A stretch of 64,000 bases of DNA, taken from contig NC_057744.1 of assembly GCF_004010195.1 (NCBI RefSeq), forward strand, positions 29,253,055 to 29,317,054, in the 5' to 3' direction. The DNA comes from Chiloscyllium plagiosum. Taxonomy: Eukaryota. How positions within the stretch are numbered: position 1 is the first letter of the stretch; the number at the start of each line of letters is the position of its first letter. Below the pieces are notes generated by a model that worked only from the letters and a program-made list of their open reading frames with translations, ran no database searches and was not told the origin of the DNA. Shown piece by piece: positions 4,893 to 58,230 of the stretch. The translations under genes were made by a program, and so were the position numbers.

Positions 4893-5048
4893 TTGTACAT
4901 CTGCACATCTTGTGTAATTTGTCCATGCAATTTAAGCATCCTACCAAGGAATCATTCTGATATATCTGCATTGCACTCTTTCCAAGGCCAATATAATTTC
5001 TGAAAGTTATCTGGCCTGGAAATGCTCACACAGTGGTGTGATCTAACC

Positions 5049-5082
5049 TGATGAAGAGCATGTGCCCGAAACATCGATTCCC
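5049..5082 (+). mobile_element. 34-bp hammerhead-core-only insertion in an old CR1 fragment
   Basis: CTGATGA(5048-5054) AGAGCATGTGCCC GAAAC ATCGATTC; flanked by GTGATCTAACC (5038-5048) and GTGGTTTAACC (5083-5093), 9/11 identical. Confidence 0.6.
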
Positions 5083-7654
5083 GTGGTTTAACCATGGCCT
5101 TGTATAGCTGAAGTGTGACTTCTTCCTCTTGTAGATGTGAAGCACCATTTTGTTAGCCTTTTTGTTTGTTTTCTGTACTTGTTCATGACATTTTAATGAT
5201 CTTTGCACACAGACGCTCCATGTTATTGGACTCAACCATTCCTAATATTTTGTTACAATCTACAAAGTACTCTCTACTTTCCTATTTAGGTTCCTACTTT
5301 TACCTACATTTCCAAAATGGTGCCACGTCAACAACATTTATGCCTCTATCTGCACTAATCCCAATGCTGACTACCTTTGTAAACTTGGATATATTTCTGT
5401 AGTTCTCACAATATGGATTTTTCTGCTCTTATTGTTGGTCTGTGTTTCTCAGATTTGAAAACTTTATTTTAAGTGGGAGACCAAGATGGCTGCCTTACTA
5501 GGTTCCTTACTAAAGAAGTTTTAGGACTTGATTGAACTGCCACAACCTGGGCCTTTGTGTGCAGCAACTCACCAACGAGGTCTGAGACAACCAATGTCAT
5601 GGTTTCTGAAAAATGATGCATCCCAGTTAGGAAATCTCTTCTGAATAACCTCAGGACCTAGAGACTTCTTCAGACGAAGACATCCTTTGTCCTTTCAAGA
5701 CCGTGCGGCAGCTTAAATTCACAGTTCCAATCAGATAGCTCTCAGCAGTCACTATCTGTGCAATTTTAGTGTTCATTCTTAAAAAGAGAAGGAAGTTCCA
5801 GAAAATTCCATGTTAATAATGGTTCATGTTTTATAAGTTATGAATATGATAAGATTCCACAACAGATGTTTATGGGACACCACCAGATACCTCCCGCTAA
5901 TTCAACTACCCTCCCATTATCACTTCTTTCTGTCTCCTAACACTCAGCCAATGCCCAGACAAGACACCAATTTGCTATAAGTTTCATGGGTTTCAGCCTT
6001 AAATATCTGTTGCTTTTGGGACATTTTATTGTCTGCCTTTTGGAAGTCCATATAAATAACATCCATTGACATTCTCTTGTCATTCTGAGATGGAAACAAA
6101 CAGTAAAATTGTCAAATGATACATATTGGCACAAATTATCATGTATGTTTCAAAATGGAGGTACAGCACAACAACTGCATTCAAAGTATTACTGTTTTTA
6201 TTTACTGTTTCTTTTCCCTCTGTGAATACATTAGTTATCTCTTCAAAAATTCAATTAGGTTTCGGTCTGACAAATTCATGCTGGCTTCCTCTGCTCTGAA
6301 AATGTTCAAGGTGTTTAGACCCCTATCCTTAATTATAGACTCAATAATAATTTCCTCACAACAGATGTTCAGCTGACTGGTCCATAATTTCCTGGTTTCC
6401 CTCTGTCATCTTTTTTAAATAGTACAGGGATGAATGTGAACGTTAATCTGTGGGAGCTAAAAGCCATGTTTTGTAAGTGCTTATACTCGATGGCAGATAC
6501 TTAATTGTGGGAAGTGCAGCCACTGGAAACCTTTATCATACTTACAGGATATTCTTATGCAATTACCTTGTGTTGCATTTGTGTTTGTTATTAGTTAAAA
6601 TTCCTGGAGCTGTGGAGTCTGTCCCTGAACACATTCCTTGGAGGTGCCTGTATACATTGCCACCATGGCAACAGGAATGCCTTACGTGATCATTTTATAA
6701 CAAAGATTTGTAACCATTTCTTTTACAGACATTGACCTTGAGAATTTATGAAATCTGATTCACCTCACGGTGTTGCATCTAAAATGGCCACTGCTATTTC
6801 AAGATGCGTTCCGATGCCTGAATTTGGAGGAGTGGCTTAGCACATCAGTACATCAATTCACCACACAATATGCAATCTGTTAAGTCCTTGGACTACAATC
6901 ACTGTTATCTTATAGGTATGCATATCAGCCTCTTTAATGTAGTCATGTCCTGCAAAAACGAATCTGTTTTAGGGTGTTTGATTGAGAGGGAAGAGATCAT
7001 AAGAAGACAAATGGGCCATTGAACTGCTTGACTGCTTGAGGCTGTTCTGTGACATTCAGTTAGACCCTGGCTGACCTGTACTTTAACTGAGTTCATCCTC
7101 CTTCATCAATATTCCTTAACAAAACTCTAATAGTCTCAGTTCCGAAAGTCCTATTTGGTCCCCATCCATGGCCTTTTGGGAAAAAGAATTACAGGTTCGG
7201 GTTTCCATGATGTGGAGAACCCTCTGACTTTATTCAGATAAAGTATTGTAAGATCCTCAATATCTACCTGGATCAATGGACAAGACAGGTAAGGCCTCAG
7301 CTGAACATCTCAACCAAAGGACGACATCTCTAACAATGGATTACTCCCTCAGTAATGGGCTCAAGTGTGAACAAATACAATTCCTAGTTTTGAATGTCCC
7401 CTCCTGAAACTTTGAGTGCTCAGGTCATAATGCATACCATAGCCCTGCCTAAGATCAGCCGATCATCCAGGTCTATAGCTCAAGACATAACCAAATGAAC
7501 CTTTGAAGAGCCTGAAAACATAGCAGCCAGTGAACATCTATGTTAAAGGTCTCAATAAACTGAAGGCATTATTGGTACTAATTCAGTAACCAAAATATGC
7601 CATTTAGAAAGGTGAGCTATTGAACTGAGTCAGTAATGCCCCTCTATGTCCATC

Positions 7655-8035
7655 TTGGCTCAGCCTGCTGCAGCCTCTGAATCAAAAGGTCACATGTTAC
7701 AGCCGCACTACAGAACTGAGGCAACACTCCAGTGAAGTATAAAGAAATCTGGAACTGTTGGAGGTGTCACCTGATGAAATATTAAACTGTGGTATCACCT
7801 ACCCTCTCAGGTGAACAGATAAGATCTTATGGTACAACTCAAAGAAGAGAAGTGCCATCCTCCGAGTATCCAATGGAACATTTGTCCTTTATTCTATGCT
7901 GCCAAACAGATTATCTGGCCAAGTCTCTCATTGCTGTTCCACAGGCTTTGTTCTGAGCAAATTGGTCACCACATTACAAAGCTTTTGTTATGTTAAGAGG
8001 TTGTATAAGGTACTAGTGATACAAATTCTTTCTTT
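7655..8035 (+). mobile_element. SacSINE1/DeuSINE-like SINE (old)
   Basis: ACACTCCAGTGAAGTA...CCCTCTCAGGTGAAC...CAGATTATCTGG...CATTGCTGTT...CAAATTCTTTCTTT. Confidence 0.6.
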
Positions 8036-8974
8036 CTCTCTTTCTGTTTGACTAACTCTCTAATTAAGACAATGACAAAAACTTGCACTGATACATTTAA
8101 CACAGTGATGTACTGTGGAACTTTACACAGATGGAAGGTAACCTGGGATTGCCTAATAGCAGAAAATGATTAAGGGAGACGACTGAAGAGAAAATCAAAG
8201 GGGTACAGGCAGAGGGTTTAAAAAATGCAACTCTAAGTATCCCATATGCCTTAAACATCCTGCATCAGTATGTGTAATACTTGAAAAGGAAGGAGCCTTC
8301 CCATTTGGGGGAGGGGCAGGAGAAGGCACAAGAAGTAACTCAAGAGGCAGCCAGATGTGAGAGTGACACTGTTTGCATTGTTTAAGAGCAGGAAGCCTGT
8401 AAGCTTTCTTGGTTAGAATCACAGGAAGGGACTGTGGAGACAGGGATGCTGCACAGGAGGGGAGGGCAGTCTCTTGATGAGTTACTGTGTGCAACTCTGG
8501 GGTCTGGCAGTCACCAGTGACCACCACCTCCTGGCCTGTCACTCACTGCATTCAGATCAGAAAAAAAGAAAGTTTGTTTGCTCAATCTCAAGGGCAGTTT
8601 CTGGCTGTTTGAGAGTTTCAATCTAATTCGAACCGTGGAAATGTTGGACGATCTAAAAAGAAATACTTCTTTTGGATTTGGCATTGATTCAATTTCAGTT
8701 CATTTCAACGTTCAACATTTATAGATACTCAAATGATCTGTCTGAATCATCACCTTCCATTTGTAGCTAAGTGAAACATGTTCTGATGTTTGAACTGCTG
8801 TTTGCTGAAATTGCAGCTTTTGCACTACATTGATTTGCAATCTAGCAGTCAATTCCAAACAGTTTCTCAACTGCTGTGAAGGAGTCAGCCTAGAAAGGAC
8901 ACTCACTATTAATCAAAGTGTCAACCCAGAGTGGCACTACATCTACATTGAATTGAAAGGTGTGGATGAACTCT

Positions 8975-9900
8975 GCTATCTAGACTCAACGGTCTGTTCG
9001 ACATCACTTTCTAAAACACAACCACTTCCACACAGAAGGACAAGGGTAGCAGACAAATGAAAACCTCACAATCTGCAAGTTCCCCTCCAAGCCACTTACC
9101 ATCCTGACTTGGAAATTTATCAGCATTCCTTCAGTGTCTTTGGGTCAAAATCCTGGAATTCCCTCTAAGGGCATTGTGGGTCTACTTCCAGCATATGAAC
9201 TGCAGCGTTTCAGAGTGGCAGCACACCCCCACCATCTCAAGGGAAACTAGTGTTATGGACCAGGGTAGACACTTTCAAAATATTTTAAGCAGGTAACTTT
9301 TCTATTTTCTTTTAGACAGACGTGAAGTGGATATTCCAGGAGTGATGCAACTGGTCAAACCACTAAGCTTTAAACAAAACAGAATTTATTGAAACACTAT
9401 GTATGTAACATGAACAAAGGAAAACAGAATTTAGAATAACAACTTATTTGATAGCCCAATTGACTCTATCGCAACTTAACAACAGAGCTGTACCAATCCC
9501 TGCACATTCCACAAACACACCCCTTGGCAAAAGGTAAATTCAAACGCAGGTTCTTACAGGCAAGAGAGATTTCAGAGAGAAAGTTTAGGCAAGACCTCTG
9601 TTGAAGCATGGAACCTCTTTTCACTGTGGCTGTTTCTCAAGACTCCCAACAGTTTTTGACTGCTTACTAAAAACAGACCAAACTGGAAAAACAACCTGAA
9701 CTTGGAGAACTGGCCACTCCCCTGCCCTTGCTTTCAAGTTGCCATTTCCAGACAAATTGGAACCTCTGCCTTTACCACCCCTCTCGAAAAAAGCCAAAGA
9801 CAACATAACCTTGTTAATGGGGCATCATCATCACACTAGGGGCAGGCAATAAATGCTAGCCAAGCCAGTGATGCCCACATCCCAGGAGTAAATAACAAAA
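8975..9900 (+). mobile_element. 3' end of a CR1-group non-LTR LINE (clade uncertain), split by a solo LTR
   Basis: AGAAGGACAAGGGTAGCAGA...CTCAAGGGAAACTAG | GGGCAGGCAATAAATGCTAGCC...CCCACATCCC; same family in reverse at 51235, 53060 and 57890. Confidence 0.75.
9251..9835 (-). mobile_element. Solo LTR (Gypsy/ERV-type), 585 bp
   Basis: Ends TGTTATG...CATCACA (TG..CA, 6/7 inverted match); 4-bp TSD CTAG at 9247-9250 and 9836-9839; AATAAA on minus strand at 9385-9390; the host LINE rejoins when it is removed. Confidence 0.85.
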
Positions 9901-10029
9901 AAGTGAAATGATCCCAAATAAGACAAGATAAATTTGCATTGGTACAACTGCATCATTTACAAAACTGCAAGCTGGATACTGGAATGACTCAAAACTCTCA
10001 ATAACTATATGACTAAGATTCCAAAAGGT

Positions 10030-10380
10030 CTACATACTACATCCTGTTGTGTGGTGTGGAACCCTTGACTACATATCAGAAGCAGGGATGCAGATTAAGT
10101 TCATTGCATGCATATTTCTTGAGAAAGATCCTTGCGATCCATTGGTAACATAGAGTCCCTAACACAGCATTGCTGAAGCTTTCTCAGTATCATGGCAATG
10201 GTCATATGACCTCAGCTCTGACGGCAAGGCCATGTCATTTGGAATGAATTGTGGTCACTGGCAGAAAGATGCATTTTATGACAAGTTTGATGCTGACGGT
10301 AGATCTGTTGTCTGGACAAAAATAAGACATATGGAATCTGATAGGTAAGGTGTCATTACATGCAAGATTGACTTTAAAAA
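10030..10380 (+). mobile_element. Degraded RTE-clade LINE RT C-terminal fragment
   Basis: Hand translation HAYFLRKILAIHW*HRVPNTALLK ... QL*RQGHVI ... WQKDAFY resembles RTE/BovB LRRILxIxWxDRVPNTEVL / QLRWxGHV. Confidence 0.6.
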
Positions 10381-10857
10381 TCAGGAACAGTCTTCACATG
10401 ATTGAAGCTTTCATGCTGAAGTGTCCACACTAAAGCTTGGAATTTGTTTCCAAGATTTCCACAGAAAAATGTAGCCACCCCCATTCAAAGATTGATGACC
10501 TATAATGCCCTCACTAAATAATAATGACTTGCTCAGATTGAATTAACTGCCAGGTCTGAAGACTCAAAACAGATAGGCAGCAGATTTAAATTAATAGCAA
10601 TGCCAAAGAAGAGAATAAGCATTTGATTCCAAGTTTTCCTTCTCTCTCGAAGGTTCTGAGTCCAGAAGGTAATTTGACAAAGGGTTCATGTATCTGTGTT
10701 GACACTGGATGTCTGGAGGGCATTCTACCCTGAAGGGGAACTGCAATTGGGCCAAATCCTGTTCTCACATTCATTTTTTTCAGCAGGAGGGCATTTATTA
10801 TTAGTCAAGACTGGAAACAGTGGTTAATCTTTTTCCCACAGCCCACAGACACAGAGG

Positions 10858-11050
10858 CAGGCCAATATTTATCCTTCAACTAACACCTCAAAAAACATTT
10901 ATCTAGGCATTATCACATTGCTGTTGTGTAAGTTTTCTTCATGTTCCCACCTTCCCAACATTACAGCAGTGATCACTGCACTTAGCTATAAAGAGCTTAG
11001 GGAGGTCCTGGGGTTGTGAAAGTTGCAATGTACGTACGAGTCTTTCATTT
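10858..11050 (+). mobile_element. SacSINE1/DeuSINE-like 3' half
   Basis: GGCCAATATTTATCCTTCAAC...CATTATCACATTGCTGTT...GAGTCTTTC. Confidence 0.65.
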
Positions 11051-12320: not shown

Positions 12321-12374
12321 CCAGAGTAGATTGTCCAAGGTCTTCCATTCCCAAAACATTTATTTTATGAGTTT

Positions 12375-12500
12375 TGATTAAAGGTTATTGACCTGAAATG
12401 TTTACTCTATTTCTCGTTCCACAAGGTCACCTGACCTGCTGCATAGTTCCACCATTTTCCATTTTGATTTCCGCATCCACAGCATTTTCTTTTTGTTTCA
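12375..12500 (+). mobile_element. Degenerate PLE terminus (family D)
   Basis: AAGGTTATTGACCTGAAATGTTTACTCT...TGACCTGCTG...CATCCACAGCATTTT. Confidence 0.55.
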
Positions 12501-15443: not shown

Positions 15444-15678
15444 GTTACATGTTACTGGTTTAGGGTAAATGGCAAGCTAGCTTTTTTGAATGAAGTTGAT
15501 GCTCTGAAATTGGAATGAGGGTCTTGCAGAGTGAAGGATTCTCTGCAGGTTTTGAAATCTCCTGCAGTCAAATTTCTAAGGTGAACTTTACTTGACTCAG
15601 GCTGAATGAGCCCTTTTCTCTGGAATCTCCTACATATAAGGTATTGCTATTAGAGACTTTGCTTGCCTGAATTATTTG

Positions 15679-15814
15679 CCTGAAGAAGGGCTTATGCCCG
15701 AAACGTCGATTCTCCTGTGATTCCTGAAGAAGGGCTTATGCCCGAAACGTCGATTCTCCTGTTCCCTGGATGCTGCCTGACCTGCTGCGCTTTTCCAGCA
15801 ACACATTTTCAGCT
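15679..15814 (+). mobile_element. 136-bp PLE-derived insertion carrying a tandem pair of minimal hammerhead motifs (family A)
   Basis: Identical 40-mers at 15679-15718 and 15723-15762, each CTGAAGA-A-GGGC-TTAT-GCCC-GAAACGTC; perfect 12-bp TSD CTGAATTATTTG at 15667-15678 and 15815-15826. Confidence 0.9.
15680..15756 (+). ncRNA. Predicted dimeric type I minimal hammerhead ribozyme
   Basis: Two intact cores; ACGU palindromes can form a shared stem III; GUC cleavage triplets end at 15707 and 15751. Confidence 0.7.
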
Positions 15815-15889
15815 CTGAATTATTTGGAGACAGTTTGATAGATTTGGCGGATCTTATGTTGATTTCTAAAGAAGCAGTCAGAAAACACA

Positions 15890-20662: not shown

Positions 20663-20985
20663 GGTGGCATAGCCACTCAATGGTTAGCACTGCTCCCTCA
20701 CAGCACCAGAGACCTGGGTTCGATTCCACCCTCAGGCAACTGTCTGCATAGAGTTTCCTCTGGGAGCTCCAGTTTCCTCCCACAGTCCAAAGGTGTGGAG
20801 GTTATGTGGATTTACCACGCTAAATTGCCCACAGTGTCCATGGATGTTATGGATTAGCCATGGGAAATGCAGGATTACATGAATAAAGAGAGGAAGGGGT
20901 CTGGGTGGGATGCTGTTTTGAAGGTCAGTGTGGACTTGATGGGCTGAATGGCCTGCTTCCACAATGTAGGGATTCTATGATTCTA
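20663..20985 (+). mobile_element. HE1 SINE
   Basis: TGGTTAGCACTGC...GGGTTCGATTCC B-box; GATTCTATGATTCTA tail. Confidence 0.92.
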
Positions 20986-21398: not shown

Positions 21399-21628
21399 AG
21401 TGACAAAAACCCGAACGAACTGCAGATGCTGTAAATCAGAAAGAAGAACAGAAGTTGCTGGAAAAGCTCAGTAGGTCTGGCAGCATCTGTGCAGAGAAAT
21501 CAAAGTCAACATTTTGAGTCCTGTGATCCTTCCCCAGTTCTAAGGAAGGGTTGCTAGTCCCAAAACGCTAACTTTGATTTCTCTTCAGAGATGCTACCTG
21601 CTGGGTTTTTCCAGCAATGTCTGTTTTT
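21399..21628. mobile_element. PLE fold-back insertion (family D) with two decayed hammerheads
   Basis: Inverted arms centred near 21538; 8-bp TSD ATCTCTTC at 21391-21398 and 21629-21636. Confidence 0.8.
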
Positions 21629-22354
21629 ATCTCTTCCTTGACTCCAGGTTGCCACAAATGCGATACCATACCTGGAACTGCACAGCTTAAAACTACCCAC
21701 TCCTGTGATTCTATCAGCAACATCTCCATGTGTCTGTGAAGTTTACTGTCCTCCCATCCCCCAGCACTTTCTTGTGTAAAGGGAACGGCTCTCAGCTGTT
21801 AAAGTTGAAATCAGATGAAATGATGCCTGTGACAGTCGAATATCATGACATATTTCTTAAGAGTGACAAGTAGCCAGGGGTCAGCTGGTAAATATCTGAT
21901 TAATACTGAGGAGCCAAGGAAATATATCAGAGGGGAGTGGAGATAGAAACAAATTAATTGGACATCATTGTGATCCTTCTTCATTCACTCTCAATGTTTT
22001 TGATCATTCTGAATACGTTAAAGATAATTACCCCTCACTGCATACCATTTTCCAGATGAATATTTAGATTTCATGCTCGGCAGCAAATATCTCCATAATT
22101 TGTTCCAATCATAATAGAGTGAAAGCTCCCACACACTCAGTTCCATCTGTGTAATTCCTCCACACACATTTATTCAACAGTAATCACACTAATCTATCTC
22201 AATTTATTCAGGACAAAGAGTCAGACACTAACAGGATTTTACATTACCAATACAAAGCATTTATCAATAAAAATGGCCTTTTAAGACAATTTTCCTATAA
22301 ACAAGCTTACTGTAATCCTGCATGGATGTCATTAATGATTTGTACTGCAGAAGT

Positions 22355-23465: not shown

Positions 23466-23655
23466 ACAAAAAAACTGCAGATGCTGGAATCCAAAGTAGA
23501 CAGGTGGGAGGCTGGAAGAACACAACAAGCCAGACAGCTTTAGAAGTCAATGTTTTGGGTGTAACCCTTCTTCAGACTGGGGGTGGATGTAGGGAAAGCT
23601 GCAGATAAAGGGGGAGGCAGGGTGGTGAAGTGGGGATTGGTGAAGATAGGCAGAG
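23466..23655 (-). mobile_element. PLE 3' terminus (family C) with decayed hammerhead
   Basis: Minus strand CTGAAGA(23575-23569) A GGGT TAC ACCC AAAAC ATT; C-rich 3' UTR. Confidence 0.8.
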
Positions 23656-23939: not shown

Positions 23940-24822
23940 ACGGATTTCAATGTCAGAAAATAGGTCGGATATCCTCTTACTGCTCTATTCCTCCCTGACT
24001 CCCTTCCTAGCTCCTCCCCCTCTCTGCCATTGCTCCCTTCTACCAACTGGTTCATTCCTCCCGGGTCATACCCTCTACCTGTCTTCACCCATCTCCACTT
24101 CACCACCCTGCCCCCACCACCCCCTTTATCTGCAGCTCCTCCCCACACCCTCCCCCAGTCCTGAAGAAGGGTCACACCCAAAATGTCGACTTCTCCACCT
24201 CCTGTTTCAGCTGCATTGAGAATACTGTGTACAGTTCTGGTCGCCGCATTACCAAAAGGATGTGGACGCTTTGGAGAGGGTGCAAAGAAGGTTTACGAGG
24301 ATGTTGCCTGGTATGGAAGGTGCTAGTTATGAAGAGAGGTTGAGTAGGTTAGGTTTATTTTCATTAGAATAAAGGAAATTGAGGGGGGACCTGATTGAGG
24401 TTTATAAACCCATGAAGGGTATAGGCAGGGTGGATAGAGACAAGCCATTTTCCCAGGGTGAAGGATTCAATAATGAGAAGTCACACATTCAAGATGAGAG
24501 GTGGAAAGTTTAAGGGGGATACATGCGGCAAGTACTTCACACAGTGGGTGGTGGGCGTTTGGAACACATTGCCAGCGGGGGTGATAAAGGCAGGTACGGT
24601 AGATTCATTTAAGATGCGTCTGGATAAATGCATGAGTAGGTGGGATGCAGAGGGATACAGATGCTTAGGAATTGACCAACAGGTTTAGGCAGTAGATTTG
24701 GATCGACTCAGGCTTGGAAGGCTGAAGGGCCTGTTCCTGGGCTGTAAATTTTCTTTGTTCTTTTCTTTTTACTTTGATGCCGCCTGGCTTGCTGTGTTCT
24801 TCCAGCCTCCTACCTGTCTACT
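23940..24822 (+). mobile_element. PLE 3' terminus (family C) interrupted by CR1
   Basis: C-rich UTR, CTGAAGA 24161-24167 AGGGTCACACCC AAAATGTCGAC; resumes ATGCCGCCTGGCTTGCTG at about 24777. Confidence 0.8.
24205..24775 (+). mobile_element. CR1/HER1 LINE 3' fragment
   Basis: [26 protein letters not shown] and KYFTQWVVGVWNTLP motifs; TTCTTTG tail. Confidence 0.93.
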
Positions 24823-25056: not shown

Positions 25057-25267
25057 CCAAGAGAGCAAAAATTGCTTGAGAAACTCAGCAGATCTGGCAG
25101 CATCTGTGGAGTAGAAACAGAGTTAACATTCTGAAGAAGGGTCATTGGACTCAAAACATTAGCTCTGTTTTTTTTTCTCTACAGTTGCTGCCAGGTCTGC
25201 TGAGTTTCTCCAGCAATTTCTGGTTCTGTTTGTTTCAGATCTCCAGCACCTAATATTCTTGTTGTAA
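25057..25267. mobile_element. PLE fold-back insertion (family D)
   Basis: Right arm starts at CTGAAGA 25131-25137; TCTTGTATTT duplicated at 25042-25051 and 25268-25277. Confidence 0.8.
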
Positions 25268-25482: not shown

Positions 25483-26410
25483 GAGTCCTACAGCATGAAA
25501 ACAGACCTTCTCTCCAACCAGGCCATGCCAACCATGTTCCCAAACTAACCTAATCCACTTGGCTGCAATTGGCCCATATCCCTCCAAACATTCTTACCCC
25601 ATGTCCTTACCCCATCCTCACATAGTAAACTTTGTTATTCACACGGTCTGCTATTACACAAAAACCATTGCTCGCCACTAATAATCCCCATTAATAGCTG
25701 TACACCCTCTTTGCCAGATTGTTATCCTTTCCTTTGCCCAACTGTTCTTCTCTCTCTTTGGGCTCTATCCTAATCATTTACCCCTTTCTCCCTCGCTCCA
25801 CCCTATCTTCTGCTTATAAACCCACATTTTCCTCGCTACCATCAGTTCTGAGGAAGGGTAACTGGACCCAAAACATTAACTCTGATTTTTCTTGACAGAT
25901 GGTGCCAGACATGCTGAGCTTTTATCGCAATTTCTGTTTTGCTTCCTTATTCATTAATGTATCCAAATGTATTTTAAATGTTGTAACTGTACCTGCATCC
26001 ATCACTTTGTCTGGCAACTCATTCCACACGCAAACTAGTCTCTGTGTAAAAGGATTGCCCTTCATATGCTTTTTAAATATTTCTCCTCTCATCTTGAATA
26101 TATGCCCCTTGTTTTGAACTACCCCACCCAGTGAAAAAGATCCTTGTAATTCACTTTATCTATGTCCTCATGAATTTGTATACCTCAGTAAGGTCACCCC
26201 TCAAGCTCTTAATTGCCAATGAAAAAAGGCCCAGTTTTTCCAGTCTATTTTTATATCTCAAACCCTCCGTTCCTGGTAACACCCTAATAAATCTTTTTGA
26301 ACTCTCCAGTTTAGTAATAACTGGGTGACCAGTATTGCACACAATACTCCAGAAGAGGCCTCACCAATGTCCTCAACATGACACCCCAACTCCTATATTC
26401 AAAGGTCTGG
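25483..26410 (-). mobile_element. CR1/HER1 3' fragment interrupted by a PLE terminus
   Basis: ORF KRFIRVLPGTEGLRYKNRLEKLGLFSL..RGDLTEVYK; tail at 25483-25595. Confidence 0.9.
25597..25942 (+). mobile_element. PLE 3' UTR plus terminus (family D)
   Basis: CTGAGGA 25848-25854 AGGGTAACTGGACCC AAAACATTAACTCTG. Confidence 0.75.
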
Positions 26411-31912: not shown

Positions 31913-32230
31913 AGAATCACAAAATTATGGAATTATTACAGTGCTGAATGAGGCCATTAGGCCTCTCGTGCCTGCACCAGCTCACTGAAGATGTTACCTA
32001 CTATGGTGATGAAACGTCTAAAAATGAACCTTCCAGCTCAGTGAGCAAACCTACATCCTGAACCTCAACCTGAGCTACAAATCTTCTCAAAACTCTGCAC
32101 CAGCTCTGTTATCTAGAGCCAATCTCCTGCCATTTCCGGATATCCCTGCACAGCCTTATTATCTAAATAACCATCCGACGTCCTCTTGAATGCTTCAGTC
32201 CCTGCCTCCACCAGATTACCAGGCAAACGT
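31913..32230 (-). mobile_element. Old CR1 3' end hosting a PLE micro-insertion
   Basis: AGAATCACA..GAGGCCATT..CCTCTTGAATGC..CCAGGC. Confidence 0.7.
31984..32094 (+). mobile_element. 111-bp PLE-derived insertion (family E) starting at a hammerhead core
   Basis: CTGAAGA(31985-31991) T GTTACC TACTAT GGTGAT GAAACGTC(32011-32018); perfect 12-bp TSD CTGCACCAGCTC at 31972-31983 and 32095-32106. Confidence 0.88.
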
Positions 32231-34507: not shown

Positions 34508-34766
34508 TAAAAACAATGACTGCAGATGCTGGAAACCAGATTCTGGATTAGTGGTGCTGGAAGAGCACAGCAGTTCAGGCAGCATCCAAGGAGCAGTGAA
34601 ATCGACGTTTCGGGCAAAAGCCCTTCATCAGGAATAAAGGCAGTGAGCCTGAAGCGTGGAGAGATAAGCTAGAGGCGGGTGGGGGTTGGGAGAAAGTAGC
34701 ATAGATTACAATGGGTGAGTGGGGTAGGGGATGAAGGTGATAGGTCAGGGAGGAGAGGGTGGAGTG
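34508..34766 (-). mobile_element. PLE 3' terminus (family A variant) running into the gap
   Basis: AAAACAATGACTGCAGATGCTGG...; G-rich (+) UTR; intact hammerhead motif. Confidence 0.85.
34600..34635 (-). ncRNA. Intact minimal hammerhead motif
   Basis: Minus strand ATTC CTGATGA A GGGC TTTT GCCC GAAACGTC GATT. Confidence 0.7.
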
Positions 34767-38302: not shown

Positions 38303-38641
38303 ACAAGCTTCCTGGTTGTGGATTTCACCAGTTTCCTCATTTTCCCTCCCTCTACCTTATCCCAGATCTAACCTTTCAACCCGGCACTGCCCTCTTGATC
38401 TGTCCTACCTATCCATCTTCCTTACCACCTATCCACTCGACCCTCCCCTCTGACCTATCACCATTGCCCTTACCTCCGTCTACCTATTGCACTCTCAGCT
38501 ACCTTCCCCCCAGCTCTATCCCCCTCCCAATTATCTCTCCACCCCATTCTGGATGAAGGGCTTATGCTCAAAACGTCGATTCTCCTGCTCCTTGGATGCT
38601 GCCTGACCAGCTGTGCTTTTCCACCACCATACTCTTCGACT
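38303..38641 (+). mobile_element. PLE 3' UTR plus terminus (family A), decayed hammerhead
   Basis: GTGGATTTCACCAGTTTCC ORF-end, C-rich UTR, TGGATGAAGGGCTTATGCTCAAAACGTCGATTC. Confidence 0.85.
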
Positions 38642-40100: not shown

Positions 40101-40624
40101 ATATTGACTGCCAGAAGTGAGGTCAGCTGGTGGGAGCTGCTTGGAAGGAAGATGTGCAGAGGTTGTAAGAAGGAAATGTCTTTTATAAAAGGGTATAAGG
40201 TGAATATCATTTGGCATATTTTCTGTATCATCCTATCACTCAGTATGTATCCTTGACATGTCTCCATAGCAATAAGATAGCAGACCATGTTAATCTGTGA
40301 GCACACTGGGTAGAAAACGTGTCTTTGATGTTCACCCAGATGTTGTGTTTTGATTGCAATTTCTCAGTGTAGATATATTGTTCGAACTGATCCTGGTCAC
40401 TTTGATGGATGATACTTGGCCCCTTGTATTGGTGAGATTTTAGTTATGATTTATAATCAACGTCTCTCCTCTCAGTTCTGAGAACTGGTCAGATCTGTGC
40501 AGTTAGTATCATCATTTGATTGCAGACCCAGCAACTGAGCCAGGAATATCACCAGTCCATGGAATCAGCAGAAAATGATGATATCACTTCTTTTACTTTT
40601 CATCCTTCTTATGATCCAACATAA

Positions 40625-42660: not shown

Positions 42661-43705
42661 GATTTGGAGATGCCAGTGTTAGACTGGGGTATACAAAGTT
42701 AAAAATCACACAACACCAGGTTATAGTCCAATTTATAGTCCAACAGGTTTATCTGAAAGCACGAGCTTTTGGAGCACTGTTCCTTCATCAAGTGGTTGTG
42801 GAGTATAAGATTGTAAGACACACAGAATTTATAGCAAAAGTTTTCAGTGTGATGCAACTGAGATGATATATTGGAAAAGACCTAGATTGTTTGTTAAGTG
42901 TCTCATCTTTTAGAATGACCATGTTGGTTTCAGTTCTTTCATATGTGAATCCCAGAACTTTATTTTGAAGTTACATTCTCAAGCAAACTTTAACAATAGG
43001 TGCCATGTCAGTTCAGACAATGCATTGAAGGTGTGAGATTAATGTCTGTCTGTCTGTGTCCAGACAGATTGTCAAACTGATTCTATTCCTTTAAAATAAG
43101 GGGATTTACAGAATCTTACATGGATTCATGCAGTTTTTGAGCAAAATAAAATGTAATTCTGCAATTACAAACTCACCTCACCAACTTATATTTGTGTTTG
43201 TGCATGTGGGTGTGTGGGGGAGGGTGTTGAGTGTCTGTGAGAGTGTGTGTGTTTGTGTATGTGTGTGAGTGTAAAGGGGTATAAGTCTGTGAGAGGGTGT
43301 ATGTGTGAGTGTGGGAGTGTATGAGAAAGAGCTTGTGTATGAGAGAGGATCTACATGTTTCGTGTGTGTGTGTGTGCATGTGCGTGCGTGTATGTGTGTG
43401 TCAGTGTGTGCGTAGTGCAGTGAGGTCACCTGTAGTATGACATTAACTCAAGGTCCCAGCTGGGTATCGAACTTGGCTATCAGCCTCTGCTCAGCCACTT
43501 TGCGTTGTTGCCTGTCCCGAAGTCTGCCTTGGAGGATAGTCACCCAAAGGTCCAGGTCGAATATCCTGGACAACTGAAGTGTTCCCTGACTGGGAGGGAA
43601 CACGCCTTATACTTCACAACCACCTGATGAAGGAACAGTGCTCCAAATGCTAGTGCTTCCAAATAACTCTGTTAGACTATAACCTGCTGTTGTGTGATTT
43701 TTAAC
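42661..43705 (-). mobile_element. Penelope-like element 3' portion (family B) with an inverted terminal copy
   Basis: Minus strand 43606-43460 encodes SLPVREHFSCPGYS/DLWVTILQGRLRDRQQRKVAEQRLIAKFDT (C-terminal half of a GIY-YIG endonuclease); CA-rich UTR; terminal repeat 42661-42810 inverted at 43607-43705; decayed hammerheads near 42765-42791 (-) and 43624-43652 (+). Confidence 0.88.
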
Positions 43706-43859: not shown

Positions 43860-44636
43860 GTATTGAATTTATTGTCATGTGCACCGAGGCACAGTAAAAT
43901 GCTTTGTCTTGCGAGCAATACAGGCAGATCACATAGTTAAGTAGCATAGATAGTAAATAATAGGTAAACAGTGGCAAAAACAAAAACACAGATACAGGTG
44001 AACTTTAAGAGTTTGTGAGTCCATTTAGTATTCTAACAACAGTAGGGTAGAAACTGTTTCGAAACTGCCTGGTGCTTGTGTCCAGGCTTCTGTACCTTCT
44101 CCCCGATGGTAGAGGTTGTAGAAAAACATTGCCAGGGTGGGATGGATCTTTGAGAATGCTTGCGGCCTTTCCTTGACAACGGGCCTGGTAGATGGATTCC
44201 ATAGATGGGAGGTTGGCCTTTGTGATTGTCGTTGAAAAGTCTGGTGCTGGAAAAGCACAGCAGGCCAGGCAGCATCCGAGGAGCAGGAGAATCGACGTTT
44301 CAGGCATAAGCCCTTCTCCTGAAGAAGGGCTTATGCCCAAAGCGTCGATTCTCCTGCTCCTCAGATGCTGCCTGGCCTGCTGCGCTTTTCCAGCACCACA
44401 CTTTTCAACTCTGGTCTCCAGCATCTGCAGTCCTCACTTTCTCCTTTGTGATTGTCCAGGCCGAGTTCACCACTCTCTGTGACTGTCTCCGATCTTAAAT
44501 GGTACAGCTGCCATACCAGACAGAATGCCCTCGATGGCGCACCTATAAAAATGGCAAGGGTATTTGCCGTCATGCCAAATTTCCTCAGCTGCCTAAGGAA
44601 GAAGAGACGTTGTTGGGCCTTTGTAACCAGTGCGTC
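43860..44636 (-). mobile_element. Rex1/Babar-type LINE 3' fragment
   Basis: KAQQRLFFLRQLRKFG and ILKDPSHPG..LPSGRRYRS..FRNSFYP..RILN motifs; CACATT TSD at 43854-43859 and 44637-44642. Confidence 0.88.
44231..44442. mobile_element. PLE fold-back insertion (family A) inside Rex1
   Basis: About 87-bp inverted arms meeting at CTGAAGA 44319-44325; perfect 14-bp TSD CCTTTGTGATTGTC at 44217-44230 and 44443-44456. Confidence 0.92.
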
Positions 44637-51234: not shown

Positions 51235-52590
51235 TCATGTATTCATGGGATGTGGGCATCAATGGTTGGTCCAGCATTTAACTCCCATCCCTAGTTCACA
51301 GAATCACAGAATTATTATGGTGTAGAAAGAGGCCATTTGGCCCTTCATGTCTGAACTTACTCTTCAAATGTGCATCATTACATAATGCCAACTTCCTGCT
51401 TCTTCCCCAACTTCCTGCACACCATTTTTATCAAAGTACCTATCCAATACCCTCTGAAAGACCTCTGTTGAAACTGTCACCACTACATTTCCAAGCAGTG
51501 CATTCCACACTCCAGCTACCTGCTGTGTAAAAAAGGCTTTCTAACATCACCTTTGCTTCTTTTGTGGATCACTTTAAATCCATGTCATCTTATTCTTGGT
51601 TCTTTTAGGATAGGAACAACTTCTTCCTATCCATTCTCTCCAGCCCTCTTCTCTCCAAGAAGAACAGACCCAAAATTTTTCAATCTATCCTTTTCAATGA
51701 AGTTTCTCAACACTGGCACCATTCTTGTAAATCACTTCCTCACTCTCTCCAGTGCATTCACATCTTCCCTATAAAGTGCTGTCCATAACTATACACAATA
51801 CTCAAGCTGAGATATAACAAGTGTCTTAATATGTTCAACATCACCTCGCTGCTCCTATTATCAAAGATGAGGACAATATGCATTATTAAGTGATCTTTTC
51901 ACGTGCCCTGCCTCCTTTAATTATCTCCGCACATGTACACCCAGATTCCGCTACTCCTGCACTCCCTTTAAAATTGTAGCCCCTATTTTGTATTGTCTTT
52001 CAATGTTCTTTTGACCGCACATTTCTCTGTATTGAGCCCCATCTGTCGCCTATCAGCCCACTCCACCAACTTGTCAATCTCTTTTTGGAGTTCCAAACTG
52101 TCACCTCACAGTTGAAAATTCTTCCAAGTTTCTTACATCTTCATAGCTGCCTCTGAGAAGGTGACGGTGAGCTGCTGTCTTGAACTGCTACAGTCCATAT
52201 GTGAGATATAGACCAACAATGCTGATAGATAGAGAATTCCAGGATTTTGACCCAGCAATGCTGAAGGACCAGCGATAAACTTCCCGATCAAGACGGTGAG
52301 TAGCTAGGAAGGGAACTTGCAGGTGGCAGTGTTCCCATGTAGCTGTTTCCCTTCTCCATCTAGAAGGAAGTGGTCATGGGTTTGGAAGATATTATATAAT
52401 GTCTGCAGTGCATCTTATAAATAGTATACACTGCTACTACTGAGCATCGGAGGTGGAGAGAGTGAATGCCTGTGAATATGGTGCCAAGTAAATGAGCTAC
52501 TTTGTCCTGGAGAGTGTCAAGCTTCTTGAGTGTTGTTGGAGTTGCACCCATCCTGGCAAGTGGGGAGTATTCCATCACAATCCTGCCTTG
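51235..52590 (-). mobile_element. CR1-group LINE 3' part (clade uncertain), split by CR1
   Basis: Tail ATTCATGGGATGTGGGC at 51241; resumes at 52143; ORF MEYSPLARMGATPTTLKKLDTLQDKVAHLLG..IHSLHLRCSVVAVYTIYKMHC. Confidence 0.8.
51297..52140 (-). mobile_element. Old CR1 3' fragment
   Basis: CACAGAATCACAGAA tail; CACTCTCTCCAGTGCATTCACATC (reverse of DVNALERV), ACACAATACTCAAG. Confidence 0.85.
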
Positions 52591-53059
52591 TGCCTCAAGG
52601 TGTAATGGAAACCACTTGACTGGTTGAAGTGCGGATCCAACAACACTCAAGAAGTTTGACAAAAGAAAAGCATTTGCATCAGGAGTGACTGATTGTGTTT
52701 TGCTTCTCTGCCATTTTGTCTCAACCATATTTGTTCAATTTCAACCCACAAGTGTTCAGAATTGGGCTGTCAACTTAAAGTAATTGATCACCCTTATTGA
52801 AGGAAATACGGACTTTTTGAGCCCACATTACATTTTTTACACTATTTCTGCTGCTGTATTCATTACTGACTTTATTTTCTTCGATTCGCATGCCAAGGCA
52901 CATCTTTTCTCATTCCCTATCGTCAAAGAGCTACTTCTACTGAATCCCGAGCCGGCATTTCCACGCCACTCTCTTTACACTTCCCTCTGCGATCCCATTT
53001 TTATTCCTATTCATTCTTGAGATTCTCCGAGAACATATGAGAGTGTTATTGGCAAGTTC

Positions 53060-53560
53060 AGGATTTATTTCCCTGCCCTCACTACCCCGGAGAAGGTGAC
53101 GATGAGCCGCTGCAGTCCATGTGGCATAGGTATAGCCATGGTGCTATTAGAGAGGGAGTTCCAGGAGTTTGTCCCAGTGACAGTGAAGGAATGGAGGTAT
53201 GGCTCCAATTCATCATAGTGTATGGCTCATTGGGAATTAGGGAAGGGACCTTGTTGGTGATGGTCTTCCCAGCATGGATGATGCCCTTACACTGACAATG
53301 GAAGTAGTGAGGGCATGGATTTGGAAAATGCTATTGAAGGAACCTTGCCAATATGCTGCAATGCATCTTCCCAGTGTAGCCAATAATGAAGGGAGTGAAT
53401 GTTGAAGGGGTGGATGTGATGCTGATCCAGGGGGCTGCTTTGTCCTGGATGGTGCCAAGCTTCTTGACAGTATTCTATCACAGTCCTAACTTGTGCCTTG
53501 TAGATGATGAACGCACTCCGGGGTTTCAGTTACTCACTATGGAAATTCTAACTTCTGATT
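53060..53560 (-). mobile_element. CR1-group LINE 3' fragment
   Basis: Parallel to 52143-52590 (GAGAAGGTGACG..GCTGCAGTCC..GCTTTGTCCTGGATGGTG). Confidence 0.75.
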
Positions 53561-55881
53561 GTGCTCATTGGGCAGGTTTTCAAAACCAATGTGATGATGA
53601 GTGGAGAAATGGGGGTATGTCAGTGCCAGTCCAAAGCATGAGCATGGAAAATGAATGGTCAAATGCTTTGGATGGGTTGGAGTTAATGTATAGAGGAGCC
53701 TGACAGAACACTGGAAAACCTCAGACTGGAGCCACAATTACATATTTTTCCCATACTACCTCAGAAGTGCTGAGGCCATTTACTGCACCAGTTGGCCCTC
53801 TAATCATGCGAGTGAATCCAGACCAGGGAATGAACCTTGCACTTCTAAAACAGCATTTATCAACTGAACCATGGGGATAGTGTTCAATGTTGAAGTGAAG
53901 ACTTGACAGATTCCTGAGGAATTCTGATGCAAAAACATGAGTCAGTATCATCCCTTGAGTAAGCAAGGATCACGGTATCTCCCAATTTGATGAAGAAAAA
54001 ACCCTGTAAAGTAAGAAAACAAGATCGAATGCAGAGACTAAAAGTACTTTGACCCTCGAAACAGTGTCTCAATGGAGTGTTTAACATTGGTACAATTGAG
54101 ATTCAATTGCAAAGTAAATGATTCAACATGCTCAGCTACAGATGATGCTGATGGTCAATTTGTTTCTCCGAGACTGGGAGAAATTCAAATCCAACTTTAA
54201 CGAGACTCAGGCAAAATGCTTCTTGACAATGTAATGGAACATTTATCAAGATTCAGCTGGAGTGTAACTTGATCAGCTAAAGATTACCGTGTTTGGCATG
54301 GTATGCCACAATGATGTCATGAAAACCACAATGTAAAACAAAACCCTCAATGTTGAATAATAGCTTGTGTTGAGTATGTGACAAGCCTGTCACATTCCCA
54401 CTGACTTACAGCATGCCCCAATGCAATGATACTCTCATTACCTTAATGGAACCATCTCAGGGAATGCTTACCAAGATCATATCTATGGGCTCCCCTAGGG
54501 CTTCAGTGGTACAATGTATTACCTGATGCATACAGACCAGGAAGCTCTCAAGACTTGAGTACTGGTCTGTGTTAAGTAATCTCATTTGGAATAGGTATGG
54601 GGGTGGGGGGATGATGTAACGTTCTGAAAGCATTACTAGGGGAAGCAGGAGAGATTGGGGAAAGATGAAGGAACAAGCACTTTGTAGCACTTTATTACTT
54701 CAGTGAGCACCGTGTTCAAAATATTTTCTCTCATGTTATGCAATATGATCAAATAAATTCCAGCCGGCTCTCCTTGATTTCTGATCCCAAGTGCCTGTGA
54801 TAACGATAGGAAAGGGATTACTAATAATGGTGGGAATGACATTTCCCATTCAAAAAGCTTCTTGTTATATGAAAGGAAATGTCAGAGCTCTTTTCTAGAT
54901 GAAGGTGAGATGTCAGCAAGGGTTTGGGAATACTGGGAATGATCAAAGTCATGGGAGATGAGACAGGTTGTTGGGGAATGTGTGATGGCAGGTAAGAGAG
55001 AGGAGGCAAGAGGAAATGTTTTGGGTCAAGAATCTGAAGAATGTGGACTCAGATATCCAGGGGTTCAATCAATCAGGTTCGCATTCACATGCATAAACAT
55101 TCACTTACTCTCTCAATCTCACACATTCACACTCAGTCATCTACTTGCAGGCTGTGCACACTTAAAGTTATATTTATTTTTCTAAATTGCATAGATACTA
55201 TGCATCTATCATTATCGTTAGCTTCCAATGGCAGAAGCTTCTTGGATCCATGGAGGTTACTTTGAATGTGGCACCATGAGTGAACTTGGAGAAAAGGGCA
55301 TCAGGTCAGCAGCACTAGACATTCTCAAATTCCTACCAGAGAGGGGAGAACATTGACTGTAATGGTCAGCCAATACTGAATCAGTAGGGCATTAATGAAG
55401 GGGGCAGGGAGGACTCCACTGGGATCTTCTTGGCATCAAAACAGCTTCCACTGAATACCAGCGTTGGTAGTTCCTTGCTGAGTTGTGCAGGACTCTCAAA
55501 AGGACCAGACAGCCTTCATATTCCAGCTCTTGTTTCACATGTCCTTCCAAACATTTGTAAAGAAATGACATTAACCCAGTGCCATCCTGGGCTCAGGACC
55601 TCTGCCAAAAACAGTTTTCAGCCAGTGAAGTGTGTTTGAAGAGGTTATGCAGAAACTTAGCCAGCTTGAGGACACAAAGATTCCACAATCAGCAATATAG
55701 TAATGACCAGAGAATCCTTCATGACTTTAGTTGAAGGATTACCGTTAACCAGGCAGAATTTCATTAGTCTTCTTCAAAATTATGTCATGGAAACTTTTAA
55801 ATCCATCTGAGAGGCATAAACGACCCATTTAATGTCACATCTAGAAGATGGTACCTCTAAAATTATGGCACTTCCTTAGTA

Positions 55882-56245
55882 CTCAGTGGTTAGCACTGCT
55901 GCCTCACAGCACCAAGGACATGGGGTTTGATTCAGCTTTGGATGACTGACTGTGTGGAGTTTGTACATTCTCCCTGTGTCTGCCTCGGTTTCCTTTAGGT
56001 GCTCTGGTTTCCTCCCACAGTCCAAAGATGTGCAGTGTTAGGTGGATTGGTTGTGCTGAAATTGTCGGCATTGTTCAGGGATGTGTAGGTACTCAGGGAC
56101 ATGTAGGCTAGGTGGATTAGCCATGGGAAATGAGGGGTTATGGGGATATGGTAGGGGACTGGGTCTGAGTGGAATGCTCTTTGAAGGGTTAGTGTGGATT
56201 TGATGGGCTGAATTGCCTCCTTCCACACTGTAGGAATTCTGTGAT
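55882..56245 (+). mobile_element. HE1 SINE abutting a reversed Deu-type SINE (55610-55882)
   Basis: CTCAGTGGTTAGCACTGCTGCCTCACAG..; TTCCACACTGTAGGAATTCT tail. Confidence 0.9.
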
Positions 56246-56552
56246 TTACAGCATCAACGTTGACATTGTGTGCAGTCTTTTGATTCATCTATTCTTTAAG
56301 CTTACAATAAATTTGCAGCTGAAAAGTGAGAGAAATATGAAGGATTACAATAAATTACAACAATCTTTCCTCTCACTCACCCACCAAATTATGTGAGGAA
56401 GGTCACGGAACCCCAAAATGTTTCCATTTAAACGGACAATATTCTATATCAAAGGCAAGAATCACAACCAGTAAATCACGGGCTGAGGCATCTGGTGAAA
56501 GCAATACGCACTTAACAAATACAAAAGTAACATTAAAATGATGTAAGCAGAT

Positions 56553-57240
56553 AACTTGCATTTATATAGCACCTTTAATAAAGTAGAATAGTCCAAAGTG
56601 TTCACAGGAACATTATCAGTCAAAATTAACGGCAAATCATATATGGAGACATGAACAGAAACTGCTGGAAAAGCTCAGCAGGTCTGGTAGCATCTGTGGA
56701 AAGAAATCCAAGTTAACGTTTTGGGTCAGGTGACCTTTCCTCAGAAAGGTGCTGAGGAAGGATCACTTGATCCAAAATGTTAACTCTGATTTCTCTCCAC
56801 AGATGCTGCCAGACCTGCTGAGCTTTTCCAGCACTTTCTGTTTTGTTTCTGATTTCCAGCATCCACAGTTCTTTCAGATTTTATTTACAGAGACTTTAAG
56901 ATTGGTGGCCAAAGAGGAAGGTTTAAACAGCATCCTAAAGTGGGAGATTGAGGTAGAGAGGCAGAGAGATTGAAGAAAAGAATTCCAGAGCTTATGGTCC
57001 ATGCAACTAAAGGTATGACTGCCAATGGGGAAGTGAACAAAGTTAGGGCTTTGGCAGAGACAGGAATTGTAGGAGATCGGAATGGATTGTGCTACTTAAT
57101 GAGGACACAGAGATGAGAGGCATAGAAGGATTTGAAAACAAAGATGGGAATTTTAAAATTGATCTGTTGCTGGATGCAAAGTGAATACAGACAAGCTATA
57201 CAGGAGTGGTGGGCAGATGTGACTTATTTGCAAGCACATA
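56553..57240 (-). mobile_element. L2-type LINE 3' fragment
   Basis: AACTTGCATTTATATAGCACCTTT tail shared with Deu-type SINEs; GAATTCCAGAGCTTA..GGATTTGAAAACAA body. Confidence 0.65.
56652..56885. mobile_element. PLE fold-back insertion (family D)
   Basis: About 90-bp inverted arms; divergent CTGAGGA boxes at 56744-56738 (-) and 56752-56758 (+). Confidence 0.88.
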
Positions 57241-57983
57241 TTTGCTCTTATGCACACACAGAATAATTGCCGGCAAAATGTACCGGTGATAATTGCTGGG
57301 TGTGTAATGAATTTAATAACACACAGGCACTTTACAAACCTTCCATTTGATTAAGTGTTCCTCACATCAGAGGGGTTTCGGTGGCTCTTGTGTATGTTGT
57401 CGTGCACCAATCTATAAAAGGTACTGCCTTTAGATTGCAGAATGAGCAAATAATGCCCATCTGGCTAAAAGCCAGGAATATCTGCCCATTTTATCGAATA
57501 AATAGTTTCCTTTTATTTCTGATGGCTTTTTTTTGTTCTGCTTATAAAAAAGATGCATCTGTCAGTGTCAGTGCTGCCTTCTGTGCTGACTGATCTGCTA
57601 TTCTGTGAGAAGACGACTAATTCCTATGGGTTTTTCCGCCAAATAAAGCTGCAGCCAGTTCTGCAGACAGGCTCATTAAACTCAAAAGGGTTTTTTTTTG
57701 TTTTATATACATAGATTAAAGTAAAACAGAAAACGCTCATGGTGAGAAAGAACAGGTCAATCCCTAGAGAATAACTTCTGATTTGAAAGGACTTCTTGTT
57801 TGTAATTTTTATTGGAGAGAAACAACCTACATCTATATAGCACCCAGTTATCACAGCTCTTGGAAAGTGGCCAGAAGGGCTGATTTTATCATTCCTTCAT
57901 AGAATGTGGGTATTGCTTCCTAGGGCAGCAATTGTTGCCCATTCCTAATACTCCTTAAGACGGTGGCAGCGATCTGCCTTCTT

Positions 57984-58230
57984 TAAAAAGCCTAGCTTTT
58001 GAGTGCTGCTCCTTCACCAGGGACAGCACCTGATGAAGGAGCAGTGCTCTGAAAGCTAGTGCTTCCAAATAAACCTTGGATTATAACTGCTGTTGTGTGA
58101 TTTTTAACTTTGTCCGCCCAGGTCCAACACTGGCTCCTCCACTTCTTGAAGAAGGGTCACACCTGAAACGTTGACTTCTCCACCTCCTGATGCTGCCTGG
58201 CTTGCTGTGTTCTTCCAGCCTCCTGCTTGT
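57984..58230. mobile_element. Chimeric PLE insertion (family B inverted + family B + family C) with three hammerhead motifs
   Basis: TSD CCTTCTT at 57977-57983 and 58231-58237; motifs at 58020-57992 (-), 58030-58058 (+) and 58146-58172 (+). Confidence 0.8.
58025..58063 (+). ncRNA. Minimal hammerhead motif with complete stem I
   Basis: AGCAC CTGATGA A GGAGC AGT GCTCT GAAAGCTA GTGCT: 5-bp stem I, 5-bp stem II (G.U closing pair), AGCT palindrome, CUA triplet. Confidence 0.72.

Follow-up and report, generated by a model that had tools for sequence, protein, structure and literature searches.

The window analysed here is a 64,000-nucleotide stretch of the Chiloscyllium plagiosum genome (GCF_004010195.1, contig NC_057744.1, positions 29,253,055 to 29,317,054, forward strand), and its recurrent feature is a short repeat bearing a hammerhead ribozyme motif. 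Very probably, these repeats are minimal type I hammerheads belonging to the pseudo-long terminal repeat (pLTR) of several lineages of Penelope-like elements (PLEs), scattered as 5′-truncated, often head-to-head end pieces of 90-130 bases. They likely cut RNA only in pairs and with the help of a protein, and solo copies are likely inert.

Profile hidden Markov models (HMMs) for five families, A-E, were built from natural copies and searched against the window, yielding 31 matches. Of these, 23 span most of the hammerhead core, corresponding to one per ~2.8 kb. A strict descriptor (CTGANGA, one nucleotide, a 4-bp stem II, GAAA, a paired NN, and UH) matched five times, as compared with zero in each of ten dinucleotide shuffles. 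When up to two core mismatches were allowed, there were 17 matches, versus 1-3 per shuffle. An Rfam scan of the window (E ≤ 10) detected no hammerhead family, just hairpin-like microRNA models on the inverted pairs.

Both the core and the palindrome were exact only at 15680+, 15724+, 31985+, 34631-, and 58030+, and stem I was also kept in just three of these (15724+, 34631-, and 58030+). The core or palindrome was damaged in the other 18 core-spanning copies. The catalytic G12, which lies within a CpG, was lost (AAAA or AAAT instead of GAAA) in the C/D copies at 24161, 23575, 25848, and 56752 and in the B copy at 43624. Judged from these letters, most window copies are inactive and likely inert. 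The sequence-only reading of this DNA had counted about 20 copies, in agreement with the 23 found by the profile HMMs, and each position it named holds the described motif or a decayed version. The features are as follows (signed numbers in brackets give the position and strand of a copy).

970..1056, minus strand: family A stub with stem II, GAAA, and tail, lacking the CUGANGA box (profile HMM)
5047..5087, plus strand: family A, C3 at 5048, palindrome broken (ACAU), stems I and II damaged
12370..12466, plus strand: old D-like copy, C3 position 12374, two core mismatches
15678..15818, plus strand: single family A insertion with a 44-nt 5′ duplication and exact cores at 15680 and 15724, the second with a family-type stem I; 12-bp target-site duplication, starts 15667 and 15815
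21442..21629, both strands: head-to-head decayed family D pair (21537-, 21540+)
23490..23576, minus strand: family C copy (23575-), G12 lost
24156..24212, plus strand: family C copy (24161+), 4-bp stem I retained, G12 lost
25063..25230, both strands: head-to-head family D pair, 25131+ and a partial inverted tail, flanked by a 10-bp direct repeat
25843..25941, plus strand: family D copy (25848+), 4-bp stem I retained, G12 lost
31981..32088, plus strand: family E (putatively Poseidon-like) copy, exact core at 31985, stem I broken, ATG spanning A9, the extra U, and G10.1; 12-bp target-site duplication, starts 31972 and 32095
34537..34636, minus strand: family A copy (34631-), exact core, family-type stem I
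38546..38638, plus strand: family A copy (38550+), three core mismatches
42683..42796, minus strand: family B 3′ pLTR hammerhead (42791-), two core mismatches, in sense with the GIY-YIG remnant
43451..43606, minus strand: C-terminal 52 aa of a family B PLE GIY-YIG endonuclease, 73% identical to the end of the open reading frame (ORF) at L061
43619..43707, plus strand: family B inverted 5′ copy (43624+), two core mismatches
44232..44412, both strands: head-to-head family A pair (44321-, 44319+); 14-bp target-site duplication, starts 44217 and 44443
56649..56844, both strands: head-to-head family D pair (56744-, 56752+), G12 lost in both
57980..58022, minus strand: short decayed inverted family B copy (profile HMM)
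58026..58122, plus strand: family B copy (58030+), exact core, 5-bp stem I, 5-bp stem II, CUA triplet, AATAAA 10 nt past the cut site
58145..58240, plus strand: family C copy (58146+), C3 lost
60355..60571, both strands: family E tail-only pieces (an inverted pair and a third) with no hammerhead core
62233..62326, minus strand: old C-like copy (62321-), three core mismatches

One isolated hammerhead-like match at 40492 (minus strand, two core mismatches) falls outside the five families and is probably due to chance.

Anatomy and families of the motif

We gathered 221 distinct exact-core copies from genomic loci, assigned 215 to the five families, and excluded six. Both palindrome forms were named in the search patterns, and stem I was absent from every pattern. 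The copies showed one common anatomy: stem I, the CUGANGA box, one extra base, stem II, GAAA, a self-complementary ACGU or AGCU, and an NUH triplet. The catalytic boxes, CUGANGA and GAAA-N-N-UH, are also the majority letters in unselected A and B copies, and they are intact in some C, D, and E copies elsewhere in the genome.

Stem I, which the sequence-only reading did not mention, pairs and covaries. Family A pairs at positions 1, 2, and 4 in 85, 89, and 82 of 96 exact-core copies, and family B at positions 1-3 in 55, 50, and 50 of 59. The corresponding counts are 10, 9, 7, and 9 of 11 for family C, 12, 15, 15, and 15 of 19 for family D, and 29 of 30 at each of positions 1-3 for family E. Sliding the 3′ strand lowered the pairing in all five families. 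The stem is 3-4 bp long and differs in sequence: AUUC/GAUU or AUUC/GAAU in A, CAC/GUG in B, AGUC/GACU in C, AGUU/AACU in D, and CCA/UGG, GCA/UGC, or UCA/UGA in the subfamilies of E. The changes are compensatory between families and within E, where position 3 is C-G, G-C, or U-A depending on the subfamily. At this position, 27 of 30 copies form a Watson-Crick pair (permutation mean 10.8; none of 10,000 permutations as high), a result that reflects about three independent changes and is inflated by kinship. In an 11-sequence alignment across families, 85.5% of the cells assigned to pairs were paired, versus 24-40% when slid, and double changes occurred in six of ten pairs; these copies are related, so the changes represent a handful of evolutionary events. 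MAFFT moved family B by one column at helix III, and the alignment therefore omits the ACGU/AGCU change.

The first pair of stem II is G-C or G-U in nearly all copies (A, 91/96; B, 56/59; C, 11/11; D, 19/19; E, 28/30). A palindrome without a loop makes up helix III: AGCU in B and ACGU in the other four families. The base added after A9 is A in families A-D and U in E. The compensatory changes in stems I and II bear out the earlier claim that the stems covary. For stem III, the proposed contrast between ACGU and AGCU is real, but it amounts to one change between lineages. The earlier reading gave no triplet for family D; 18 of 19 exact copies of this family use GUU. The extra residue is present as described, and it is a standard PLE feature.

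The families had further been called unrelated short repeats, at least five in number. Five are indeed recognised, but A, C, and D possess a common tail and form one broad lineage, so that the five families correspond to about three lineages. The ORFs of families A and B both contain a CX2-5CxxC linker between the reverse transcriptase (RT) and the endonuclease, and their proteins are 23% identical over 230 aa. Family E fragments have no Cys linker ahead of GIY-YIG. Accordingly labelled by motif, A and B appear Neptune-like (distinguished from Nematis by motif only), C and D share the tail of A, and E appears Poseidon-like. Two further loci (L100 and L102) have a core of the AGCU type whose stem II differs and whose stem I does not pair; they may represent a sixth family.

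Carrier elements

All five families are linked in sense to RT/GIY-YIG sequences at genomic loci outside the window (given here as L-numbers). This upholds the proposal that the repeats are ribozyme-bearing PLE termini, with weaker support for C, D, and E. The hammerhead lies 344-1444 nt past the GIY-YIG end in 27 of 29 other family B loci, and 3′ of its own ORF in 23 of 29 family A loci. Nine of the 29 loci in each of these two families also have an inverted hammerhead upstream. An A-like GIY-YIG sequence precedes the hammerhead in sense in five of 15 family C copies. Family E hammerheads follow a GIY-YIG ORF at L320, L073, and L270, and the ATG of this family sits at the start of stem II. A single ORF combining RT with GIY-YIG at its C-terminus was found for family A, at L161; families B, C, D, and E are represented by just thumb/GIY-YIG parts. 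The L161 ORF is open over 620 aa (RVT_1, E = 1.2e-8; GIY-YIG, E = 2.6e-4, just below the curated cut-off), and its hammerhead follows after ~160 nt.

The most complete element is a decayed full-length family A copy of ~3.2 kb at L309:1383-5050, composed of an inverted pLTR, a gap, the tail, the ORF, and a 3′ hammerhead. The N-terminus of its ORF is a long Ala/Pro/Thr-rich, low-complexity stretch, the region where most long copies are truncated. In family A, the hammerhead seems to be followed by the ORF start after ~170 nt (L309, L316). The 3′ hammerhead and, in L309 and L316, a 5′ tail running into the ORF were observed, and the position of the L309 5′ sense hammerhead is an N gap. Nearly all of the 30 + 30 loci examined are 5′-truncated or enter assembly gaps, and only L305/L309 reach the 5′ end; many young long copies fall in such gaps.

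In the window, the earlier reading had placed a family B hammerhead directly on a GIY-YIG C-terminus. The remnant is real (43451-43606), but it lies on the minus strand. Since the family B hammerhead follows in sense in 27 of 29 loci, the genuine 3′ copy is 42791-, and 43624+ represents the inverted 5′ one. A Pfam scan missed such short or frameshifted GIY-YIG pieces (none of four detected; L061 was missed as well), and BLASTP gave no alignment of the 52-aa piece to the family A protein. In the family B 3′ untranslated region (UTR; window 42800-43450), a long CA-rich, microsatellite-like tract of variable length lies behind the ORF and ahead of the hammerhead.

Two other arrangements were noted among young family A copies. 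At L316:639-1472, a 224-nt unit from a young subfamily, made up of hammerhead, tail, ORF start, and 3′ UTR end, is repeated in tandem, a retrozyme-like arrangement that places partners in cis; L317 shows a similar 224-nt spacing. Nine young copies (L211, L213, L214, L220, L221, L223, L232, L234, and L236) bear internal deletions that bring the hammerhead to 736-1705 nt past the anchor, versus the usual ~2,020. Many such skips are visible in DNA contigs too.

Abundance, insertion, and RNA reads

In the 3.56-Gb assembly, two core patterns matched exactly 167,584 and 50,894 times (218,478 in total). The reversed patterns matched 1,208 and 217 times (1,425 in total), a control that probably understates chance, since reversal gains CpGs. 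Narrower patterns gave 98,983 (mostly A), 15,205 (E), and 922 (C and D) exact matches; intact C/D copies thus exist elsewhere, but they are rare. We also sampled 46 evenly picked 10-kb stretches (446,029 non-N bases), in which 66 core-spanning copies were found, or one per 6.8 kb, as compared with none on the reversed sequence. Family matches cover 1.7% of this DNA. The sample holds 23 exact cores, of which 18 keep stems I and II and two lie outside the families. Taken together, the exact matches, the reversed control, and the even sample give a net figure of about 200,000 exact cores in the genome, and extrapolation suggests ~500,000 recognisable copies. The earlier figure of roughly one motif per 3 kb therefore holds locally but not genome-wide, as the window is ~2.4 times richer in copies than the average.

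Copies run across the cut site: in family A, 50 copies were taken from the window and the evenly picked stretches, and C17 is covered by 48 of them and the extra base reached by 47. The RNA copied into the genome was therefore uncut, in line with the report on the anole element (PMC11167929). G12 has changed in 12% of the copies in family A and 45% of those in family B, as compared with 10-19% and 25-40% at neighbouring CpG sites. Because G12 decays at the CpG rate, no trace of selection is apparent, and the copies look neutral once inserted. Duplications of 10-14 bp flank four of 12 window insertions checked, versus two of 195 random positions with at least 10.

In 23 of 52 non-inverted A copies and 18 of 23 D copies, the 5′ end lies no more than 10 nt from C3, as compared with 3 of 37 copies in E. 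DNA contigs and RNA reads also break at L161:6446-6447, the first base of stem I. This pile-up could mark a transcription start or a reverse-transcriptase stop; Drosophila Penelope is described as having an internal promoter (PMC2377424). Another possibility, that stem I has a 3′ splice site at its 5′ edge like the one in Drosophila Penelope, was rejected, as the CAG present in C and D is missing in A.

The RNA data comprised one single-cell poly(A) raw-read run (X20), with 1,465 reads on L161:4500-6700. The read depth was ~350 over the hammerhead and tail, on both strands, and up to ~65 over the ORF, and at no position did read ends gather in large numbers, a pattern that fits read-through of scattered stubs. 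Fifty-eight reads depart from the L161 tail at 6540, with six templated bases (by a loose majority) followed by an A-run (agreement 0.54). This point, in the tail of the young A subfamily (L161:6527-6546), is 68 nt past the cut site, and an AATAAA located 49 nt past that site precedes it by 14 nt. In the assembly, 10,939 copies continue normally there, four continue with AAA, and none with an A-run, so the A-run was likely added rather than templated. The young A subfamily thus likely receives a poly(A) tail 68 nt past the cut site. In family B, 42 of 57 copies have a candidate signal, AATAAA or ATTAAA, 10-12 nt past the cut site and a GT-rich stretch behind it. Such a hexamer is missing from families C, D, and E and from most A subfamilies, which limits the generality of this lead.

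With considerable doubt, we suggest that the pLTR of the Neptune-like lineages might act like a retroviral R region. The RNA would run from the first base of stem I to a poly(A) signal behind the cut site, with the ribozyme usually uncut. Internal priming at the first tail would copy only 100-130 bases to the RNA 5′ end and so mass-produce stubs headed by a hammerhead, several hundred thousand in number, which would also supply host transcripts with poly(A) sites.

Apart from the PLE pieces, a separate abundant SINE family with no hammerhead match occurs in the window at 20663, 26855, 39151, 48953, 55869, and other positions; we presume that it resembles the shark HE1 SINE. A 22-nt minisatellite occupies 63683-64000 and continues off the window end.

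Possible action and relation to known systems

By analogy with published PLEs, two motifs would pair through the 4-base palindrome to build helix III. Cutting would then need two copies in one RNA, supplied by two pLTRs ~3.2 kb apart or by short tandem units, and probably the element's own protein. A PLE hammerhead monomer is reported to be inactive and a dimer weakly active (PMC4209133); protein-assisted cleavage, with the uncut RNA as the insertion template, has also been described (PMC11167929). The ribozyme would be selected in master elements, which may explain the covariation between subfamilies.

Several observations weigh against this interpretation. A U-U mismatch occupies position 3 of the 4-bp stem I in 66 of 96 family A copies, and the predicted dimer hammerhead folds lie 12-15 kcal/mol above the minimum-energy dimers; for both reasons, the activity may be very low. 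No pile-up of read ends was seen at the cut site among the 1,465 reads, from a library poorly suited to detecting such ends. No gap-free tandem with both pLTR hammerheads occurred among the 30 + 30 loci. The linkage of family D rests on one or two loci (1-2 of 34 copies with an A-like GIY-YIG upstream in sense), and the clade labels are motif-based.

Single-strand folding gave no significant z-score for the hammerhead fold. In the tandem insertion of the window, the 44-nt duplication lets 15700-15752 (plus strand) form, as the lowest-energy structure predicted, a type III-like hammerhead on one chain, at an ensemble frequency of 8.6% and z = -0.12.

The hammerhead shape might instead be kept for some purpose other than catalysis, for example as a landmark for protein binding, for a promoter, or for reverse transcription, without ever cutting in vivo. 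The uncut origin of the copies, the lack of read ends at the cut site, and the weak stem I of the most abundant family would all suit such a role, as would the reports that anole hammerhead mutants leave in vitro insertion unchanged (PMC11167929) and that Naiad PLEs thrive without a hammerhead (PMC8557442). We nevertheless regard it as unlikely, since C3, U4, G5, A6, G8, A9, G12, A13, A14, A15.1, and U16.1 are all kept and H17 is never G (family majority) while the stems change. These letters are the same in the unselected sets as in the exact-core sets, which were selected for the core, and they are conserved across lineages with proteins just ~23% identical. Furthermore, the anole homologue cleaves with protein (PMC11167929). 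Chance resemblance of common repeats to a short motif might be invoked from the empty Rfam result and the two exact cores outside the families; it is refuted by the covariation and the linkage, namely the unselected stem I pairing with its compensatory changes and the fixed position after PLE ORFs, and the shuffles likewise gave no strict match.

It is rather improbable that the short copies are a separate non-autonomous family, a retrozyme or SINE, multiplying through its own small ribozyme-processed RNA. The 5′ ends near C3 in A and D and the 10-14-bp target-site duplications are compatible with that origin, and the 224-nt unit of L316 matches PLE-derived retrozymes (bioRxiv 2026.07.22.740005). 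However, the copies start at the 5′ edge of stem I, away from the cut site, and E rarely stops there. Their lengths form a continuum from stubs to near full length, the stub sequence is identical to the ends of coding elements, and the window copies are dispersed or inverted, with one array seen elsewhere, at L316. Retention of some inserted copies by the host, to cut or end its own transcripts, appears very improbable. The very large copy numbers, the hammerhead and tail in poly(A) RNA of both strands, and the predicted one-chain fold of the 15680/15724 tandem could be read in its favour. Against it stand the decay of G12 at the CpG rate, the damage in 18 of the 23 window copies, the low ensemble frequency and z-score of the tandem fold, and the finding of no host exon in the 150 of 407 unmasked frames (≥ 45 aa) scanned against Pfam. 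Two weak Pfam matches among these 150 frames looked spurious on translation and PDB search.

The preferred reading, PLE-borne hammerheads acting in pairs, is of a kind known since 2014, and the novelty implied earlier falls away: Cervera and De la Peña (PMC4209133) already described every structural feature and the solo, inverted distribution. The window itself brings no new mechanism. Our literature search found no paper on shark PLE hammerheads or on a pLTR poly(A) signal, although the supplements of PMC4209133 and the bioRxiv survey may hold a shark entry; the passage found in the whale shark paper lists Penelope and does not mention ribozymes. The role of such ribozymes is called unknown in PMC7761336 and PMC8557442. 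The present genome makes this question testable: it has young near-identical subfamilies and natural tandems, its stem I occurs naturally both perfect and with the U-U mismatch, and the 5′ and 3′ ends can be mapped.

The hammerheads here share with the minimal hammerheads of PMC4209133 the type I topology without a helix III loop, the palindromic positions 15.2-16.2, the extra base between 9 and 10.1, the G10.1-C11.1 pair, the short stem I, the many covarying families, the pLTR location, and the predominance of solo truncated copies and opposite-strand pairs. Stem II is 4-6 bp, unlike the 7-8 bp of the schistosome families (PMC4209133), and the hosts named in that paper include fish, coelacanth, and Xenopus. 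Family E resembles the Poseidon element PAc of the green anole (Frangieh et al. 2024, PMC11167929) in its start codon at the beginning of stem II, inside the hammerhead, the lack of a Cys linker before GIY-YIG, and copies that extend to the tail past the cut site. PAc was assayed with purified protein, whereas the families here are known from sequence and A-D appear Neptune-like. With the Neptune-clade PLEs (Craig et al. 2021, PMC8557442) they share the RT, the CX2-5CxxC linker, the C-terminal GIY-YIG, heavy 5′ truncation, an inverted 5′ copy, and the tail; they differ in the clear 10-14-bp target-site duplications at four of the 12 window insertions checked.

The L316 tandem units, with their pLTR-derived type I hammerhead, are similar to non-LTR retrozymes (PMC7229834; Li et al. 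2026, bioRxiv 10.64898/2026.07.22.740005), a 2026 survey of which included one chondrichthyan genome. The window copies differ from retrozymes in being dispersed stubs, with no arrays except one 44-nt duplication, and from those of the axolotl in particular, which carry canonical hammerheads (PMC7229834). In number, our results extend PLE minimal hammerheads to a very dense genome, with ~200,000 exact cores and ~1.7% of the sampled DNA. Published counts are in the thousands for coelacanth (~4,000) and Xenopus (~9,000; both PMC4209133) and for coral (6,000 motifs), and reach 120,000 retrozymes in the much larger axolotl genome (PMC7229834, PMC7761336), a rough comparison, as the descriptors differ and the one used here is looser than that behind the coelacanth and Xenopus counts.

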